A stretch of DNA of 64,000 nucleotides from Bacteroidales bacterium (GTDB lineage Bacteria > Bacteroidota > Bacteroidia > Bacteroidales > PUMT01): assembly GCA_007132225.1 (NCBI GenBank), contig SLPB01000045.1, positions 11,940 to 75,939 of the forward strand. The letters are read 5' to 3'. Under the pieces are notes generated by a model. It was not told where the DNA came from. It searched no databases and worked only from the letters and a program-made list of their open reading frames with translations. The position numbers and the translations under genes are program-made. Shown here one piece after another: positions 10,851 to 18,108 of this stretch (position 1 is its first letter; each line of letters starts with the position of its first letter).

Positions 10851-12902
10851 TTGATGATCATGACCAAATACCGGGTTACAATACTGTTAATTTTAATTTT
10901 TAGTTACTTAAATATCTCAATGACCCAATCTCAGGAAGAAAATCGCAGCCTTTCGGCTGAAGTTTTATGGGAGATGAAAAGAGCAGGCTCTCCGGTTATA
11001 TCTCCCGGTGGACAATGGGTGGTCGCACCTGTTACAAGCTATACAGTTGATGATGATAAGAGCCATACCGACCTGTGGCTGTTCTCATCAGACGGTTCTG
11101 TCGAAAGACAACTGACCATGTCAGGTTTTGCCGACGGTCAGCCGGTATTCAGTCCGGATGGTTCAACAATGGCTTTTGTCAGCCGCCGCGATCAGGATGA
11201 TGCATTTCAGATCTACCTGCTTCCTTTAAAGGAGCCCGGCGAAGCTACCCGGCTGACTGAAATACCCACCGGGGTAAGCGCTCCGAAATGGGCAGATGGT
11301 TATATTTATTTCATAAGCAGCATATGGCCCGGGAAGAGCTGGGAAGAGATGAAAGAGATGGTTAAAGCAGAAAAGGATAAAAAATTATCGGCCCGAACCT
11401 GGAACAAACTTCCTTATTCTCACTGGGACCAGTGGATAGATGAGGAGAGGCAGGCGCATCTTTACAGGATACCCGCCTCAGGTGGCGAAGTGGAGCCAAT
11501 AACCCTTCCCACCGGATGGGAACTGCCCCGGTCCGCCCAGGGCCCTTCCAGCTATGATGTTGCATCCGACGGTTCCCTGGTGGCATTTTCATCCGACAGC
11601 AAAAAAGATGGTGTTGATCCGGAGCTGGATATTTTTCTGGTCAGTCCGGGCAGCACCGAAGTAATAAACATTACGGAAGAAAATATAGCAGCTGACGGCA
11701 ACCCCCTTTTTAGTCCCGACAGCCGCTACCTGGCATTTAACCAGCAGAGGATAAAAGGTTTTTATGCCGATACCAGGAGACTGATACTGCATGATCTGGA
11801 GAGCGGGCAACAGAGGGAGGTGACGGGAGACTGGGACAGGTCCGCCGACGGACTGGTATGGATGCCCGATGGATCAGGGTTGTATGGAGCCATTGATGAT
11901 GCCGGAACCAGGAGGATCTATCATATTGATATTTCGGATGGAACACCCAGGGCAGTGACGGGTGACACGGACTTTTCCGGACTCGATGTATCTGATAACG
12001 GAACACTGGTGTCATCCAACCAGAGCTTCATGTACCCTCCAAGAATAGTGGTTGTCGATCCCCAAAGCGGGGAAGTTAGAAGAATCGACACCATCAACGA
12101 TGATATTCTTGCCGGAACAGATATGGGAACCTATGAATCGGTGACCTATAAGGGGGCTGACGGACAGGATATACAGATGTGGGTGCACTATCCTCCGGGA
12201 TTTGATAAAAACAAACAATACCCACTGTTCCTGCTTATTCATGGAGGGCCCCACAGCGCTATAACCGACGGGTTCCATTTCCGCTGGAATGCACAAACCT
12301 TTGCTTCATGGGGTTATGTAACCGCATGGCATAATTTTCATGGCTCGTCGGGATTCGGCCAGGAATTTACCGATGCCATAAATCCGGACTGGATAACTAA
12401 GCCCTATACAGACACAAGAAATGCTGCAGAATGGTTTGCCCAAAAGCCCTGGATTGATGAAACGCGTATGGTCGCGGGTGGAGGCAGTTACGGCGGTTAC
12501 CTTTCAAGCATTCTTCTTGGCAGGGAACACCCTTTTAATGCACTTTTGATACATGCCCCGGTATATAATTTTTACAGCCAGATGGCAAGTGACTTTGCAG
12601 TGCATTCAACAAGGTTCGGCGATTATTGGGAAGATCCTGAAATTTACAGGAACCTTTCCCCGCACTATTACGCAGAGAACTTCGACACCCCTGCCCTGAT
12701 CATCCACGGCCAACAGGACCTCAGGGTGCCGGTGGGACAGGCATTTGAACTGTTCCGTACCCTGCAGCACCGCAGGGTGGATTCAAGGCTGATCTATTAC
12801 CCCGATGAGAACCACTGGATACTTAAACCTAACAATTCCATTTACTGGTACTCGCAGGTAAAGGAATGGATTGAAAAATATGCAGCCCCGGGAGGAAGAT
12901 GA
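10851..12902 (+). CDS. S9-family serine peptidase (prolyl oligopeptidase / acylaminoacyl-peptidase type) with an N-terminal beta-propeller; secreted
   Basis: It has a signal-like N-terminus and propeller repeats (FSPDGS.. x3). The C-terminal alpha/beta hydrolase has the nucleophile motif GGSYGGY and the HGxxD (IIHGQQDLRV) and H (DENHWI) triad regions. The true start is probably ATG 10854 or 10860. Confidence 0.9.
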   Translation: MMIMTKYRVTILLILIFSYLNISMTQSQEENRSLSAEVLWEMKRAGSPVISPGGQWVVAPVTSYTVDDDKSHTDLWLFSSDGSVERQLTMSGFADGQPVFSPDGSTMAFVSRRDQDDAFQIYLLPLKEPGEATRLTEIPTGVSAPKWADGYIYFISSIWPGKSWEEMKEMVKAEKDKKLSARTWNKLPYSHWDQWIDEERQAHLYRIPASGGEVEPITLPTGWELPRSAQGPSSYDVASDGSLVAFSSDSKKDGVDPELDIFLVSPGSTEVINITEENIAADGNPLFSPDSRYLAFNQQRIKGFYADTRRLILHDLESGQQREVTGDWDRSADGLVWMPDGSGLYGAIDDAGTRRIYHIDISDGTPRAVTGDTDFSGLDVSDNGTLVSSNQSFMYPPRIVVVDPQSGEVRRIDTINDDILAGTDMGTYESVTYKGADGQDIQMWVHYPPGFDKNKQYPLFLLIHGGPHSAITDGFHFRWNAQTFASWGYVTAWHNFHGSSGFGQEFTDAINPDWITKPYTDTRNAAEWFAQKPWIDETRMVAGGGSYGGYLSSILLGREHPFNALLIHAPVYNFYSQMASDFAVHSTRFGDYWEDPEIYRNLSPHYYAENFDTPALIIHGQQDLRVPVGQAFELFRTLQHRRVDSRLIYYPDENHWILKPNNSIYWYSQVKEWIEKYAAPGGR

Positions 12903-12985: not shown

Positions 12986-14869
12986 CTAATTAAATTTTTT
13001 GCGCTGTATCCTGATGGCGTTAAAGATGGCAGCAAGGGCAACGCCCATGTCGGCAAATACCGCTTCCCACATACCGGCAATACCCATTGCCCCCAGTCCC
13101 AGAAACAACGCCTTGATAACAAAGACCAGCCATATATTCTGCCACACTATACGGCTGGTTTCACGGGAAACCTGAACCGCCGTGGCAATCCTTGAAGGCT
13201 GGTCTGTCTGTATCACCACGTCGGCCGTTTCAATTGCCAAATCGCTCCCCATGGCTCCCATGGCAATGCCGACATCGGCTTCCGCTATGGAAGGTGCATC
13301 ATTAACCCCGTCACCGGCAAAGGCAACAACGCCTTCGTTTCGACTGACATATTCCTTGACTATTCCGGCTTTTTCTTCGGGCAGGAGGTCTCCGTGTGCA
13401 TGGTCAATACTGAGCTCAGATGCAATTGCCAAGGTAATTGTGTCCTTGTCCCCCGACAAAATGGAGATATCTTTCACTCCTAATCTGCGGAGCTTTTCAA
13501 TAGCTTGCCTGCTGTCTTCCTTTATCTCATCGGCAAGCACAAAATATCCTGCATAACGATTATCAACAGCAACATGAATGCAGGTAAAAGGAATAGATCC
13601 TGTTTCGGGAAGAACCCTGACTTTGTTCTTATCCATCAATTTATTATTACCTGCAAGCAACTTATGTCCGTTAACCGTACCCGTTATGCCCATGGCTGAA
13701 TGCTCTCTCACCTCTCCGGTGCGGGCATCACCGGAATTAATACCTGTGTAATCAACTATAGCTCTTGCTACCGGATGGTTCGAATGGCTTTCAAGAGCCG
13801 CGACCAGTTTAAGAAGCTCTTCCCGGTCAAATTCAACGGGTTTAAATTTCCTTACAGAGAAAGTACCCCTGGTGAGAGTCCCGGTTTTATCTATCAGTAT
13901 TGAATGCAGGTTCCTGAGCCTGTCGAGATAATCAGCGCCCTTGAAAAGGATCCCGTTCTTTGAAGCCGCACCAATGCCTCCGAAATAACCAAGCGGAATT
14001 GATATGTAAAGTGCACAGGGACATGCTATTACCAAAAAAACAAAAGCCCTGTAAACCCACTCTTCAAATTGGTAAACCTCAACAAAAATCCAGGGCAGAA
14101 ATGTAACCATCAGTGCCATTGCCATTACCCCTGGAGTATAATACCTGGCAAACCTGCGCATAAACCTTTCTGTGGGAGCTTTTCTCTGGTTTGCCTTCTC
14201 AACCATGTCAAGTATCCTGGAAAGGGAGCTGTTGCTGAAAGTGGCAGTAACCTCTGCTTCTACAACACCTTCGAGGTTTATCGAACCGGCAAGGACTTTT
14301 TCTCCCCTGTAAACAGAAGTTGGCTTGCTTTCTCCGGTAATTGCCGATGTATTGAGTATTGCCCTGTCCGAATTAAGCTCCCCGTCCAGAGGTATTTTCT
14401 CTCCCTGTTTAATGAGCAGGCTCTCCCCCGGCAAAACCTCTTCAGGTTTTACCACAATCCATTGGTTTTCCCGTCTGACAGTAGCCTGGGCCGGCCGGAC
14501 ATCCAGCAACGCTTTGATATTTCCCCTGGCCCGGCTGACTGCATTCTCCTGGAAAAGCTCACCAACTTCATAGAAAAGCATTACCGCAACCGCCTCGGCA
14601 TATTCTCCTATAATAAAAGCACCAAGAGTTGCAACCGACATCAAAAAAAATTCGTTGGCAAAATCCAGTCTGGCCAGTTCCCTTCCGGCCCTTAACAATA
14701 CAGGCCCTCCCACCAGCATATATGCAAATGCATACCAGTACAAAGGAATAATACCGGTAAAAAACCCGGCTCCGGAGAAACTCATTGCAAGGCCGCCAAT
14801 CAGCATAACCCCGCTGATAACTGCAGGTACATATTGCCTTTTGAATAGCATAATCAAAAATTTACTCAA
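12986..14869 (-). CDS. P1B-type heavy-metal ATPase, Zn/Cd/Pb-like (P1B-2), without an N-terminal metal-binding domain
   Basis: 627 aa. Motifs: CPC in the TM segment (VIACPCALYISIP), DKTGTLT, SNHPVARAI, GDGVNDAP, and a C-terminal TM motif FADMGVAL with the Asp typical of ZntA/CadA-type pumps. Confidence 0.88.
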   Translation of the reverse strand: MSKFLIMLFKRQYVPAVISGVMLIGGLAMSFSGAGFFTGIIPLYWYAFAYMLVGGPVLLRAGRELARLDFANEFFLMSVATLGAFIIGEYAEAVAVMLFYEVGELFQENAVSRARGNIKALLDVRPAQATVRRENQWIVVKPEEVLPGESLLIKQGEKIPLDGELNSDRAILNTSAITGESKPTSVYRGEKVLAGSINLEGVVEAEVTATFSNSSLSRILDMVEKANQRKAPTERFMRRFARYYTPGVMAMALMVTFLPWIFVEVYQFEEWVYRAFVFLVIACPCALYISIPLGYFGGIGAASKNGILFKGADYLDRLRNLHSILIDKTGTLTRGTFSVRKFKPVEFDREELLKLVAALESHSNHPVARAIVDYTGINSGDARTGEVREHSAMGITGTVNGHKLLAGNNKLMDKNKVRVLPETGSIPFTCIHVAVDNRYAGYFVLADEIKEDSRQAIEKLRRLGVKDISILSGDKDTITLAIASELSIDHAHGDLLPEEKAGIVKEYVSRNEGVVAFAGDGVNDAPSIAEADVGIAMGAMGSDLAIETADVVIQTDQPSRIATAVQVSRETSRIVWQNIWLVFVIKALFLGLGAMGIAGMWEAVFADMGVALAAIFNAIRIQRKKFN

Positions 14870-14906
14870 AATAACAGAAAAATAAATATTAGTACATATA
14901 ATTAGT

Positions 14907-14914
14907 TATATTTG
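14907..14914 (+). promoter_or_regulatory. Candidate Bacteroidota -7 promoter box (TATATTTG matches TAnnTTTG) upstream of the Cys-rich leader ORF
   Basis: It matches the TAnnTTTG consensus exactly and lies 22 nt before the mini-ORF ATG. I saw no clear -33 TTTG. Confidence 0.35.
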
Positions 14915-14935
14915 TTCAATCAATCAGGAACCATA

Positions 14936-15022
14936 ATGCTCAATTACGCCCAAGTTCTTTGTATCTGTTGCTGCGAATCGACTACTTCAAGCTGTCGGGA
15001 GGGTTTTGTTTTATTCAGGTAA
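14936..15022 (+). CDS. Candidate leader peptide, 28 codons: MLNYAQVLCICCCESTTSSCREGFVLFR (5 Cys, 3 consecutive)
   Basis: ATG at 14936 and TAA at 15020. Cys codons are at 14960-62, 14966-74 (TGT TGC TGC) and 14993-95. It is followed by a terminator hairpin and then the mccA-like gene. It is too short to appear in the supplied ORF track. Confidence 0.45.
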   Translation: MLNYAQVLCICCCESTTSSCREGFVLFR

Positions 15023-15048
15023 CAGTTCAAATATTATACAAATCCTTT

Positions 15049-15079
15049 AAAGCCCTTCAGCCAACTGCAGGGCTTTTTT
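15049..15079 (+). terminator. Intrinsic terminator/attenuator 15 nt upstream of the mccA-like start codon
   Basis: 12-bp stem AAAGCCCTTCAG (15049-60) / CTGCAGGGCTTT (15065-76) with one mismatch and loop CCAA. The T-run at 15074-15079 continues from the 3' arm of the stem. No + strand gene lies upstream except the mini-ORF, so it is positioned as a cis-regulatory attenuator. Confidence 0.65.
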
Positions 15080-15093
15080 AATACTATAATTCT

Positions 15094-16068
15094 ATGCAAA
15101 ATTCAGTTTTAGATTTAATAGGGAACACCCCAATGGTAAAACTATCCCAATTTGATACAGGAGCCTGCAATCTTTTCCTGAAGCTGGAAGACAGAAATCC
15201 TGGTGGATCTGTAAAAGACAGGATAGCTCTTTCAATGATAAATCACGCCGAAAAAAATGGTCTGATCCGGCCGGGCTCTTTACTTGTTGAAGCAACGGCA
15301 GGAAACACAGGTCTGGGACTGGCCCTGGTTGCTGCAATAAAAGGATACAGGTTGCTGCTGGTTATTCCCGATAAAATGAGTAAAGAAAAAATACTTCATC
15401 TGAAGGCAATGGGAGCAGAAGTAAAGATAACCCGCTCTGATGTGAATAAAGGACATCCGGAATACTATCAGGATATGGCAGAGAAAATTGCCATGGATAC
15501 CAGTAATTCCTATTATGTAAATCAGTTTGAAAACCCAGCAAATCCCCTGGCACATGAGAAAACAACCGGTCCGGAAATTTTCCGGCAAATGGATGGCAAG
15601 GTAGATGCGATAATCTGCGGAATCGGCTCTTCCGGCACGCTAACCGGACTGACCCATTATTTTCAAGGGGTCAAACCAGATGTGGAAATGATAATAGCAG
15701 ATCCGGAAGGTTCTGTAATAAAAGACTATGTAACCACAGGAAGTTTTGGGAGGGCCGGTTCATGGATGGTGGAGGGAATAGGAGAAGATTTCATACCCAC
15801 TATTGCAGATTTTTCCCTGGCCAAAACAGCATACACTGTAAGTGACCAGGATAGTTTTACTACAGCCCGGGAATTATTGAGAAAAGAAGGCATCCTTGCC
15901 GGTTCTTCAACAGGAACGCTCCTTGCTGCAGCATTGAGGTATTGCCGTGAACAAAGAGCACCAAAGAATGTTGTTAGTTTTGTATGCGATACAGGTAATA
16001 AATACCTTGCCAAAATGTTTGACGATTCCTGGTTAAAGGCAAAAGGATTAAGTACTGATATTAGGTAA
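15094..16068 (+). CDS. PLP-dependent cysteine synthase / cystathionine beta-synthase family enzyme (MccA/CysK-like, no CBS domains)
   Basis: 324 aa. It has the PLP-Lys motif KLEDRNPGGSVKDR, the ATAGNTGLGLA loop and the GIGSSGTLTG phosphate-binding loop. It is paired with a cystathionine gamma-lyase gene. Confidence 0.88.
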   Translation: MQNSVLDLIGNTPMVKLSQFDTGACNLFLKLEDRNPGGSVKDRIALSMINHAEKNGLIRPGSLLVEATAGNTGLGLALVAAIKGYRLLLVIPDKMSKEKILHLKAMGAEVKITRSDVNKGHPEYYQDMAEKIAMDTSNSYYVNQFENPANPLAHEKTTGPEIFRQMDGKVDAIICGIGSSGTLTGLTHYFQGVKPDVEMIIADPEGSVIKDYVTTGSFGRAGSWMVEGIGEDFIPTIADFSLAKTAYTVSDQDSFTTARELLRKEGILAGSSTGTLLAAALRYCREQRAPKNVVSFVCDTGNKYLAKMFDDSWLKAKGLSTDIR

Positions 16069-16166: not shown

Positions 16167-17303
16167 ATGCAATTTAAAACCAAGGTTATACATGCAGCCC
16201 AACAGGCCGATATTAGTACAGGGTCCGTTGTAACTCCCTTACACCTTACTTCAACATACAGGCAGGAAGAAGTAGGTATTCATAAAGGTTTCGAATACAG
16301 CCGCACCGGTAATCCTACACGGAAAGTCCTGGAAAACTGCCTGGCTGAACTGGAAAGTGGTAATTTCGGCCTTGCCTTTGCTTCAGGAATGGCAGCCGAG
16401 CATGCAGTTATATCTACCCTCAGCCCCGGAGATCATATCGTTGCATGCGGTGATATGTACGGTGGGACCTACAGGTTATTTGAAGAAGTTTTTAAACCAC
16501 TGGGCATGAAATTTAGTTATGTTGGATGGGAAGCCGGAGAATTTGAACAGGCAGTGAAAAAAAACACAAAGCTTTTCTGGATCGAATCGCCTACCAATCC
16601 GTTAATAAGGCTGATAGATATCAGGGCTGTATCAGATATTGCAAAAAGAAACCAGATAAAGCTTGTAATGGATAATACCTTTGCAACTCCCACTTTCCAG
16701 CAGCCTTTGCTGATGGGAGCCGACCTGGTGGTACACAGTGCTACAAAATACATCGGAGGCCATTCCGATCTGATCGGAGGAGCTTTGGTAGTAAATGACG
16801 AAGACTGGTACAACAAATTGAAATTCCTGCAGAATTCTGTTGGGGCCATTCCCGGGGCTTTCGACAGCTGGCTGATGCTCAGGGGAATAAAAACCCTGGC
16901 AATCCGTATGAAGCAGCATGCGGAAAATGCCCTGGAAATAGCAACATTCCTCGAAGATCATCCCGTGGTTTCCGAAGTTTATTATCCCGGTCTTAATACA
17001 AGTCCTTACTATGAACTGGCAAACAGGCAAATGACCGGATTTGGAGGCATGGTTTCATTTAAACTTAAAGACGGCAACCTGGAAACAGCAAACAGATTCT
17101 TCAAAAAGCTTAAAATCATAACTCTCGCAGAAAGCCTGGGGGGTATTGAATCGCTGATAAATTATCCCGCTGTTATGACTCACGGATCCATTCCGGAAAA
17201 GCAGAGAATGGAAATAGGTATTACAAATGATCTTATAAGGTTATCGGTGGGCATTGAAGATGCAGGTGACCTGATTGATGATTTATCAGGTGCACTCTCG
17301 TAA
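16167..17303 (+). CDS. Cystathionine gamma-lyase / gamma-synthase family PLP enzyme (MccB/MetB/MetC-like)
   Basis: 378 aa. It carries the Cys/Met-metabolism PLP family motifs YSRTGNPT and the PLP-Lys region VVHSATKYIGGHSD. Confidence 0.9.
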   Translation: MQFKTKVIHAAQQADISTGSVVTPLHLTSTYRQEEVGIHKGFEYSRTGNPTRKVLENCLAELESGNFGLAFASGMAAEHAVISTLSPGDHIVACGDMYGGTYRLFEEVFKPLGMKFSYVGWEAGEFEQAVKKNTKLFWIESPTNPLIRLIDIRAVSDIAKRNQIKLVMDNTFATPTFQQPLLMGADLVVHSATKYIGGHSDLIGGALVVNDEDWYNKLKFLQNSVGAIPGAFDSWLMLRGIKTLAIRMKQHAENALEIATFLEDHPVVSEVYYPGLNTSPYYELANRQMTGFGGMVSFKLKDGNLETANRFFKKLKIITLAESLGGIESLINYPAVMTHGSIPEKQRMEIGITNDLIRLSVGIEDAGDLIDDLSGALS

Positions 17304-17422: not shown

Positions 17423-18019
17423 TTATTGAGTATAAACCATCCTGAATTCTACCGTAACTTCATCATGAGTGCGGATCGTGCCGAACATCAGTGTAGGGGG
17501 ATCAATATCAAAATCCGTCATTTGCAGATCTTTGGTTCCCGCACAAACAATTTCATCGGCACCGTTTATACATGTAGCTTCAACACTGATACGGCGGGTT
17601 ACACCGGATATGGTTAAATCACCTGTGGCTGTAACTTCATATTCATCTCCGTTTCTTTGAATAGTCCCGTTATCATTACTGCGAAATGTAATCTCGGGAT
17701 GGTTCTCAGCGTCCATTTCCTCGTGAGCCATTCTCTGAAGCCTGGATCTTTCACTTTCCAGAGTTGTTTTTTCAAGGATAAAAATAACTGATTCCAGCGA
17801 CTCAAGAGTCTCTCCGTTACCGGTAGAAAAGACAGCTTCACTCATTAACGTTTCGGAATGAAGTTCCCAGTCGTGCAGGGAAGATGTTCCAATTACAGTT
17901 ATATGAGAATCGCCGGTAGAAGTGTATGTAAGTGACTGAGTCATGGTATCAGGAATAACCAATATCCATGCTAAAATCATAATAAACAGTAATTTCTTGT
18001 TTTTCATAATTTTTTTCAT
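17423..18019 (-). CDS. Secreted YceI-like (lipocalin-fold, polyisoprenoid-binding family) protein, paralogue 1
   Basis: It has the signal peptide MKKIMKNKKLLFIMILAWILV. It is clearly paralogous by eye (extent not computed) to the 22343-22930 product: shared HDWE, HPEITFR, ATC-x8/9-C and DPP motifs. The track ORF extends to 18070, but 18019 or 18007 give a canonical signal peptide. Confidence 0.7.
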   Translation of the reverse strand: MKKIMKNKKLLFIMILAWILVIPDTMTQSLTYTSTGDSHITVIGTSSLHDWELHSETLMSEAVFSTGNGETLESLESVIFILEKTTLESERSRLQRMAHEEMDAENHPEITFRSNDNGTIQRNGDEYEVTATGDLTISGVTRRISVEATCINGADEIVCAGTKDLQMTDFDIDPPTLMFGTIRTHDEVTVEFRMVYTQ

Positions 18020-18108
18020 AATTTTTGAATTATTAACAACAACCATTACTATTAAAAACCAGGATGTCAACTTTGTTACATTGGGCTTTAATTAATCCAA
18101 TCACCATA

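Follow-up and report, generated by a model that had tools for sequence, protein, structure and literature searches.

Between a promoter box and a pair of genes resembling those for cystathionine beta-synthase (cbs) and cystathionine gamma-lyase (cgl), a Bacteroidales bacterium carries a short open reading frame (ORF) rich in Cys codons, followed by an intrinsic terminator. This element lies at 14907-15093 of a 64,000-nucleotide (nt) stretch (positions 11,940 to 75,939 of contig SLPB01000045.1, assembly GCA_007132225.1), hereafter called the window, to which all coordinates refer unless a locus is named. Judging from comparison with related genomes, the element is most probably a ribosome-mediated leader-peptide transcription attenuator, which would sense charged tRNA-Cys and control the cbs-like/cgl-like operon. 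All 12 sampled clusters with a CBS-like protein that shares 75% identity or more with that of the window have a common layout upstream of cbs-cgl: a short ORF in which 3-4 Cys codons follow one another, then a G-rich segment, and a terminator shortly ahead of the gene. They yield 13 distinct leaders, in which the codons of the Cys run vary solely between TGT and TGC at the wobble position.

In the window, the parts of the leader follow one another on the forward strand. The -7 box TATATTTG (14907-14914) reads TAtaTTTG and fits the Bacteroidota pattern TAnnTTTG, exactly where a preliminary description of this DNA had placed it. The leader ATG starts 21 nt past the end of the box, which implies a 5' untranslated region of roughly 15 nt, given the likely transcription start. 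The ORF (14936-15022; ATG at 14936, TAA at 15020-15022) comprises 28 codons plus the stop and reads MLNYAQVLCICCCESTTSSCREGFVLFR, with Cys at codons 9, 11, 12, 13 and 20; both its extent and its five Cys codons agree with the preliminary reading. Codon 9 (TGT), an ATC and the consecutive TGT TGC TGC of codons 11-13 (14960-14974) form the proposed stall site. The G-rich strand GGAGGGTTTT (14998-15007, region 2), predicted to pair with the 5' arm of the terminator, begins 23 nt past the end of the Cys run and lies 13-22 nt ahead of the stop codon. The terminator itself (15049-15079) consists of a 5' arm AAAGCCCTTCAG (15049-15060), a CCAA loop and a 3' arm CTGCAGGGCTTT (15065-15076), the hairpin (15049-15076) leading into a run of six T (15074-15079) that ends 14 nt before the cbs-like ATG at 15094. 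Its presence and its closeness to the structural gene had been recognized correctly, but the stem has 11 base pairs (bp) and one U.C mismatch (15057/15068) rather than 12 bp, and the spacing is 14 nt rather than 15 nt. Because of this mismatch the hairpin was missed by a simple terminator-pattern scan; folding of the window with ViennaRNA assigns it -14.0 kcal/mol and retains it in both the minimum free energy and the centroid structure. The neighbouring gene, which encodes a heavy-metal (Zn/Cd-type) P-type ATPase (12986-14851, reverse strand; TIGR01525 and TIGR01512 above their cut-offs), is transcribed divergently, as had been claimed, so the terminator cannot serve an upstream gene. The 224 nt originally given for the gap between the two divergent genes hold only if the ATPase gene starts at a TTG at 14869; with the likelier ATG at 14851 the gap is 242 nt.

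In the mechanism that we propose, transcription would start a few bases past the -7 box (14907-14914) and a ribosome would load onto the leader ORF (14936-15022). If Cys-tRNA is plentiful, the ribosome would cross the Cys codons and the G-rich segment and reach the stop codon, whereupon the terminator (15049-15079) would fold and transcription would end ahead of the cbs ATG. If Cys-tRNA is scarce, the ribosome would stall when one of the Cys codons (14960-14974) occupies the A site, its leading edge being short of the G-rich segment; the segment, thus left free, would pair with the terminator 5' arm once this is made, no terminator would form and RNA polymerase would read into cbs-cgl. The antiterminator would form first because it is transcribed first, making the switch a kinetic one.

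The comparison on which this proposal rests draws on a protein search, which delimited a clade of CBS-like relatives 75-83% identical to the window protein. We examined the DNA of eleven clusters of that clade together with that of the window's own protein; locus L001 came from genome and metagenome scans. The 13 leaders are those of the window and 12 others, locus L179 contributing two. Conservation of the mini-ORF and its Cys codons in related genomes, which had been set in advance as a test of the proposal, was found in every sampled relative at or above 75% identity. The leader peptides read MNKTLSIKNITNSCCCCLFLKHVEGGNHISVY in L001 (followed by the terminator; CBS-like protein 77% identical), MPEYAQYLCICCCLYNTSGCWEASVQSG in L162, MLKYAQCPCICCCSYATSGCWEASVQSG in L173, (L)NYTQYNCICCCLLTTSGCQGGTPYICIK in L176, where the start is a TTG and the hairpin has no T-run, MTSESIKNISACCCPINYACWAAA in L163, MFEFFLNNRSCCCPFSGCKGAA in L174, MSESILNNCACCCPIVYPGAV in L178, MNKTLSIKNITNSCCCCLFLKHVEGGNHISV in L169 (Maribellus comscasis), MINISTYIHGISCTCCCLIFKQ in L182 and MMSCNSNDQMVACCCCYYPKNRKESIV in L187. 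Two complete units, MINRSLSINNMMCMCCCMLVQHVEGDIML and then MRNIFSNVYACCCTCKIIAWRGYCIVQI, stand in tandem before a single cbs-cgl pair in L179 (L179:2150-2500), an arrangement also known for other attenuators and riboswitches. The named carriers are Maribellus comscasis and a Draconibacterium sp., both members of the Prolixibacteraceae (Marinilabiliales). A TAnnTTTG -7 box occurs at a similar distance in L162, L163, L174, L178, L169 and L179, and far further upstream in L176. L187 encodes a full-length, 456-amino-acid CBS with Bateman domains and still has a CCCC leader and a terminator, so a link between the leader and the absence of the C-terminal CBS (Bateman) domains is ruled out. An exact look-up of the window's own CBS-like protein returned no record; an N-terminally shorter version of 311 amino acids (P0001) led to a metagenome contig, L161 (ENA ERZ27301262, contig k141_3268517), which is near-identical to the window around this locus, differs by one leader change, Val7 to Phe (GTT to TTT), and is identical in the regulatory parts.

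What these leaders share is codons rather than peptide sequence. Columns without variation in the whole-leader alignment fall in the start codon (the TG of A/TTG), the Cys run (TGTTG.TG.), the G-rich segment (GG), the terminator (its GC core) and the T-run. The ORFs range from 21 to 32 codons and start with ATG in 12 of the 13 leaders and with TTG in one; the Cys run always falls within codons 10-15, and outside this run of 3-4 Cys the peptides differ nearly everywhere. Compared with L162 or L173 (CBS proteins 81-83% identical to that of the window), the window leader shows 13 non-synonymous and 2-5 synonymous codon differences, those in the Cys codons being synonymous only, and replacements are often radical (e.g., E to L, R to W, F to S). 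A peptide that changes freely around fixed Cys codons indicates constraint on codon identity and not on the peptide, which is the signature of regulatory codons.

The same data bear on the explanation that the mini-ORF is a small gene in its own right, coding for a Cys-rich and, for instance, metal-binding micropeptide, with the hairpin as its own terminator and cbs-cgl reached by leaky read-through. The peptides do have 3-6 cysteines, a further Cys toward the C-terminal part is common to several leaders, and genes of metal handling (heavy-metal ATPase, HMA, YHS, CusB) adjoin in 9 of the 10 loci with upstream context. Such a micropeptide would, however, be unconserved beyond its Cys run, vary between 21 and 32 residues and change mostly by non-synonymous and radical replacements, while conservation in its C-terminal half follows the nucleotides that pair with the terminator and not the reading frame. 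In L182, moreover, the stop codon precedes the G-rich segment, the terminator stands only 10-38 nt from the cbs ATG across the leaders, which leaves no room for a separate promoter, and the two tandem copies in L179 suit a regulator better. On this evidence we regard a micropeptide gene as very unlikely.

The distances between the parts also fit the attenuation mechanism. The Cys run lies 27-42 nt from the ATG, and its end is separated from the G-rich segment by 14-23 nt in all 13 leaders, a distance that just exceeds the footprint of a stalled ribosome. The segment is located inside the ORF in 12 of the 13 leaders and at the stop codon in the exception, L182, and 19-48 nt separate the stop codon from the terminator. 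Across the leaders, this geometry is such that a stalled ribosome would leave the antiterminator strand free and a running one would cover or pass it. As a separate observation, the extra Cys codon 20 (14993-14995), which abuts the G-rich strand, is kept in the window, L162, L173, L176, L163 and L174; a ribosome stalled at this codon would cover the antiterminator strand.

Both of the structures between which the RNA would choose were recovered by folding. The terminator is present in all relatives, with energies of -8.7 to -24.9 kcal/mol and a T-run of 5-8 in 12 of the 13 leaders, and was the sole consensus structure found by RNAalifold. For the antiterminator, folds were run from 10 nt past the Cys run to the terminator loop, which corresponds to the RNA available when the ribosome is stalled and the 3' arm is still unmade. 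In every leader folded in this way, the G-rich segment is base-paired with the 5' arm of the terminator, the duplexes having energies of -8 to -15 kcal/mol that are reached by a fraction of shuffles between 0.000 and 0.27. In the window, the pairing of GGAGGGTTTT (14998-15007) with AAAGCCCTTC (15049-15058), 10 bp including two G-U pairs as the preliminary description had proposed, was reproduced with a duplex energy of -13.9 kcal/mol, against a mean of -6.3 kcal/mol when the upstream region is shuffled; 1% of the shuffles attain the value of the window. A second register, 14991-15009 with 15037-15060, is also possible. Differences between lineages are matched on both strands (GUGGAAGG/CCUUUCAC, UGUGGAGGG/CUCUUCACA, CGUGGAGGG/CCCUUCACG, AAGGGC/GCCCUU and GGAGGGUUUU/AAAGCCCUUC), and cognate combinations of upstream region and arm are more stable than swapped ones (permutation p = 0.0008).

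Several results nevertheless weigh against transcription attenuation as formulated here. The cells of the terminator alignment are paired in 86.8% of cases, a value that 19 of 500 shuffles reach and that therefore exceeds expectation by a modest margin. Column-wise covariation of the antiterminator is indistinguishable from that of shuffles (60.8% paired vs 60.7%), in a MAFFT alignment in which several sequences are out of register and the core five pairs barely vary. With the Cys codons masked by a ribosome, equilibrium folding retains the terminator in 11 of 12 leaders, so that the switch must be kinetic, as in classical attenuators. The fold energy of the whole leader in the window is ordinary (z = -0.87). 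When the RNA is folded free of a ribosome, the N-terminal codons are the pairing partner of the G-rich segment in most relatives; the window fold joins the Cys codons to the stop-codon region and GAGG to an upstream CUUC. These predicted pairings are plausible as the region 1:2 element of an attenuator, but they are not uniform across the leaders. In L169, L179b and L176 the G-rich segment lies 16-30 nt before the stop, where a ribosome parked at the stop codon would not cover it, so termination without stalling must there rely on timing or on region 1:2 pairing. L176 (L176:2323-2500) is atypical in further respects, with an apparent TTG start and a hairpin of -24.9 kcal/mol that has no T-run and stands 38 nt from the gene, and termination in this locus may work differently.

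Some of these observations would also suit a Cys-codon ORF that is regulatory but has another output, be it Rho-dependent termination, mRNA stability, cbs translation, or a protein or small RNA (sRNA) acting on the G-rich segment. Antiterminator columns no better than shuffles, equilibrium folds that keep the terminator and the missing T-run of L176 can all be read in this way; in addition, mycobacterial Cys short ORFs (sORFs) act on translation and not on termination, and a conserved AT-rich motif lies upstream of the leader promoter in the loci with a divergent ATPase gene. Such outputs leave unexplained the canonical hairpin with its T-run of 5-8 in 12 of the 13 leaders and the fact that the G-rich segment resembles the 3' arm of its own terminator and pairs best with its own 5' arm. 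These alternatives are further disfavoured by the terminator not overlapping the cbs start region and by Bacteroidota generally not relying on Shine-Dalgarno pairing. We consider an output other than the terminator/antiterminator switch unlikely, and ribosome-mediated transcription attenuation the better account of the leader.

We also weighed whether a short ORF and a hairpin had come together by chance in an AT-rich intergenic region, given that short ORFs and terminator-like hairpins are common, that the pattern scan had missed the hairpin and that the z-score of the whole-leader fold is unremarkable. Shuffles give an expectation, per 64 kb and counting both strands, of 0.62 ORFs that start with ATG, span 12-45 codons and contain at least three Cys codons in a row, and of about 0.001 for this gap on one strand; in the window, the leader ORF is the only one of this type. 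When the window was left out and a covariance model was made from the twelve other leaders, the model located the element of the window at 14966-15080 with 68.6 bits (E = 2e-10). With order and spacing kept in 13 leaders besides, the chance explanation is effectively refuted. A second match of the model, at 1176-1276 on the reverse strand (19.3 bits, E ~0.1), falls within an ORF in antisense orientation and is spurious, and neither the scan for Cys-run ORFs nor the covariance model detected a second leader copy elsewhere in the window.

Known RNA families do not account for the region either. Searches of Rfam 15 returned no match on the window region at E values up to 10 and none at gathering level in 12 related loci, the best score being that of Phe_leader (17.7 bits against a gathering threshold of 55), on the terminator only. 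Riboswitch and sRNA models are thus without a match in the region, and with RNAalifold showing the terminator only, a riboswitch or other known RNA family is rejected. The lack of both an Rfam family and conserved structure beyond the terminator fits a leader peptide rather than a riboswitch. Taken with the conservation and the spacing, this comparative evidence supports the classical ribosome-mediated attenuation that the preliminary description had read from the layout, as far as sequence analysis can carry it.

Cysteine is absent from the textbook list of leader-peptide attenuators, and RNA-level regulation is poorly mapped in Bacteroidota. To our knowledge, the only Cys-codon leaders studied experimentally are mycobacterial, translational and without terminators, and we know of no regulator of the reverse-transsulfuration genes of Bacteroidota. 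Leader-peptide attenuators documented in Bacteroidota concern the Trp, His and Ile/aromatic pathways (PMC9723704 supplement; see also PMC7366714). With the classical attenuators (trpL, hisL, leuL, thrL, pheL and ilv leaders of Proteobacteria; Trp, His and Ile leaders of Bacteroidota/Flavobacterium, PMC9723704), the element shares a promoter-proximal short ORF with tandem codons for the end product, a terminator directly before the first structural gene, an upstream segment able to pair with the 5' arm, and predicted read-through upon stalling. Unlike in those systems, cysteine would be sensed and a reverse-transsulfuration pair (cbs-like, cgl-like) regulated, the antiterminator strand is part of the ORF instead of following it, with 7-30 nt to the stop, region 1:2 pairing is not uniformly evident, and no Rfam leader family matches.

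Cys-codon attenuators do exist in other phyla (PMC1262725, bioRxiv 10.1101/834739, PMC8632094); for Bacteroidota, where the preliminary description knew of none, the literature searched yielded none either. Polycysteine leaderless sORF attenuators of mycobacteria were first predicted by Seliverstov et al., one predicted case preceding a cbs gene, and in Mycobacterium smegmatis leaderless Cys sORFs were shown experimentally to act translationally, in that they expose a sequestered ribosome-binding site (Canestrari et al., bioRxiv 10.1101/834739). Common to these and to the leaders described here is that charged tRNA-Cys is read through consecutive Cys codons of a short ORF upstream of an operon for cysteine metabolism, which is controlled in this way; in our case this is a prediction. 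Whereas the mycobacterial sORFs are leaderless, lack an intrinsic terminator and act on translation, the present leaders have an implied short 5' untranslated region, a terminator with a T-run and no Shine-Dalgarno logic, and belong to another phylum; the window terminator, ending 14 nt before the ATG, excludes the start region, contrary to what defines the mycobacterial type. Ribosome-mediated attenuation has also been predicted, computationally, for the uORFC-8-2 motif upstream of cysS in Rhodobacterales (Brewer et al. 2021, PMC8632094), in which an upstream ORF has tandem Cys codons and a terminator stem with a U-run comes after it. This motif of Alphaproteobacteria has two Cys codons (positions 14-15), both inside the first of two stems, and precedes cysS, whereas here a cbs-like gene lies downstream and the Cys codons are outside any conserved stem (terminator only, according to RNAalifold); similarity to uORFC-8-2 was not detected, there being no Rfam match at the thresholds used. 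In its sequence features, the element is of the classical attenuator kind and is outside the mycobacterial and Rhodobacterales families. Full-text literature searches brought up neither a cysteine leader in Bacteroidota nor one whose terminator stands before cbs-cgl, although most subscription journals fall outside their coverage and an earlier description is possible.

If the proposal is correct, these leaders constitute a terminator-based family of cysteine attenuators in Bacteroidota, by a mechanism that is conventional and with precedents for Cys-codon sensing. They would offer a testable handle on cysteine sensing in Prolixibacteraceae, for which Maribellus comscasis, as a named species, is a natural test organism, and the seed alignment and covariance model can be used for annotating the element in genomes.

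Downstream of the leader, the first gene (15094-16068, forward strand) encodes a 324-amino-acid pyridoxal-phosphate enzyme of the cystathionine beta-synthase/CysK family without the C-terminal CBS-domain pair; its product matches Pfam PALP, scores below cut-off for TIGR01137 and PRK10717, and has cystathionine beta-synthases as its closest solved relatives. The second (16167-17303, forward strand) encodes a cystathionine gamma-lyase-like enzyme of 378 amino acids (Cys_Met_Meta_PP family), with cystathionine gamma-lyases as closest solved relatives, and in the relatives always follows the cbs-like gene. These family matches and solved relatives confirm the earlier assignment of the pair as CBS/CysK-like and cystathionine gamma-lyase, and the operon most likely makes cysteine from homocysteine or methionine.

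The leader and cbs-cgl are adjoined by a metal efflux or metal-binding gene in all of the loci with upstream context except L187. In six loci this is a divergent Zn/Cd-type P-type ATPase gene (the window, 12986-14851 on the reverse strand, L162, L163, L174, L176 and L178), and the divergent ATPase arrangement is repeated in L161-L168 and L174-L178. Maribellus has genes for YHS and HMA proteins instead (L169:1210-2052), L179 those for an ATPase with an HMBD domain and an HMA protein (L179:1-1927), and L182 those for OEP and CusB/CzcB (L182:1-2196). That different types of metal genes are found in different lineages suggests a functional link rather than inherited synteny alone, and the recurrence hints at a tie between thiol supply and metal stress. 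One tentative extension is that the Cys attenuator is the sensing arm of a metal-stress module and acts as an indirect sensor of metal or thiol depletion. Cd, Zn and Cu would drain free cysteine and thiols, charging of Cys-tRNA would fall, the ribosome would stall in the leader and conversion of methionine to cysteine would be switched on. This would explain why cbs-cgl and the leader are kept beside genes for P-type ATPases, HMA/YHS proteins and CusB/CzcB, but we think this extension rather improbable.

Among the 160 loci of the genome and metagenome scans, the leader was found in L001 only, the others, 65-72% identical and mostly from Proteobacteria with a few Bacteroidota and others, being without it. 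Most of what these scans returned were CBS genes of Proteobacteria at 63-70% identity. It was also missing in low-GC relatives of at most 72% identity, namely the Bacteroidales loci L002, L081, L082 and L083 and Flammeovirga locus L011. Cys-run ORFs in the GC-rich loci L017, L053 and L137 have no terminator and look like chance occurrences. Three of the Bacteroidales loci, 70% identical, have in common an upstream region of ~250 nt (L002:1-252, L082:860-1157, L083:1200-1500) that has no Rfam match and holds a start-less frame TGT AGT TGT GGA GTC TGC TGC, which could be a relic of a Cys leader or another regulator.

Two further features recur around the operon. An AT-rich motif resembling AAATT[A/T]A[T/C]TC[A]AAT[T/A]AA (14856-14877 in the window) occupies the equivalent place in L162, L163, L174, L176 and L178, between the divergent ATPase gene and the leader promoter and mostly ~30 nt upstream of the leader -7 box; its candidate roles are those of operator, UP-like element and ATPase promoter. 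On the other side, a YceI-family gene (17423-18070, reverse strand) lies convergently downstream of cgl, a position that is kept in L163-L166, L176 and L178.

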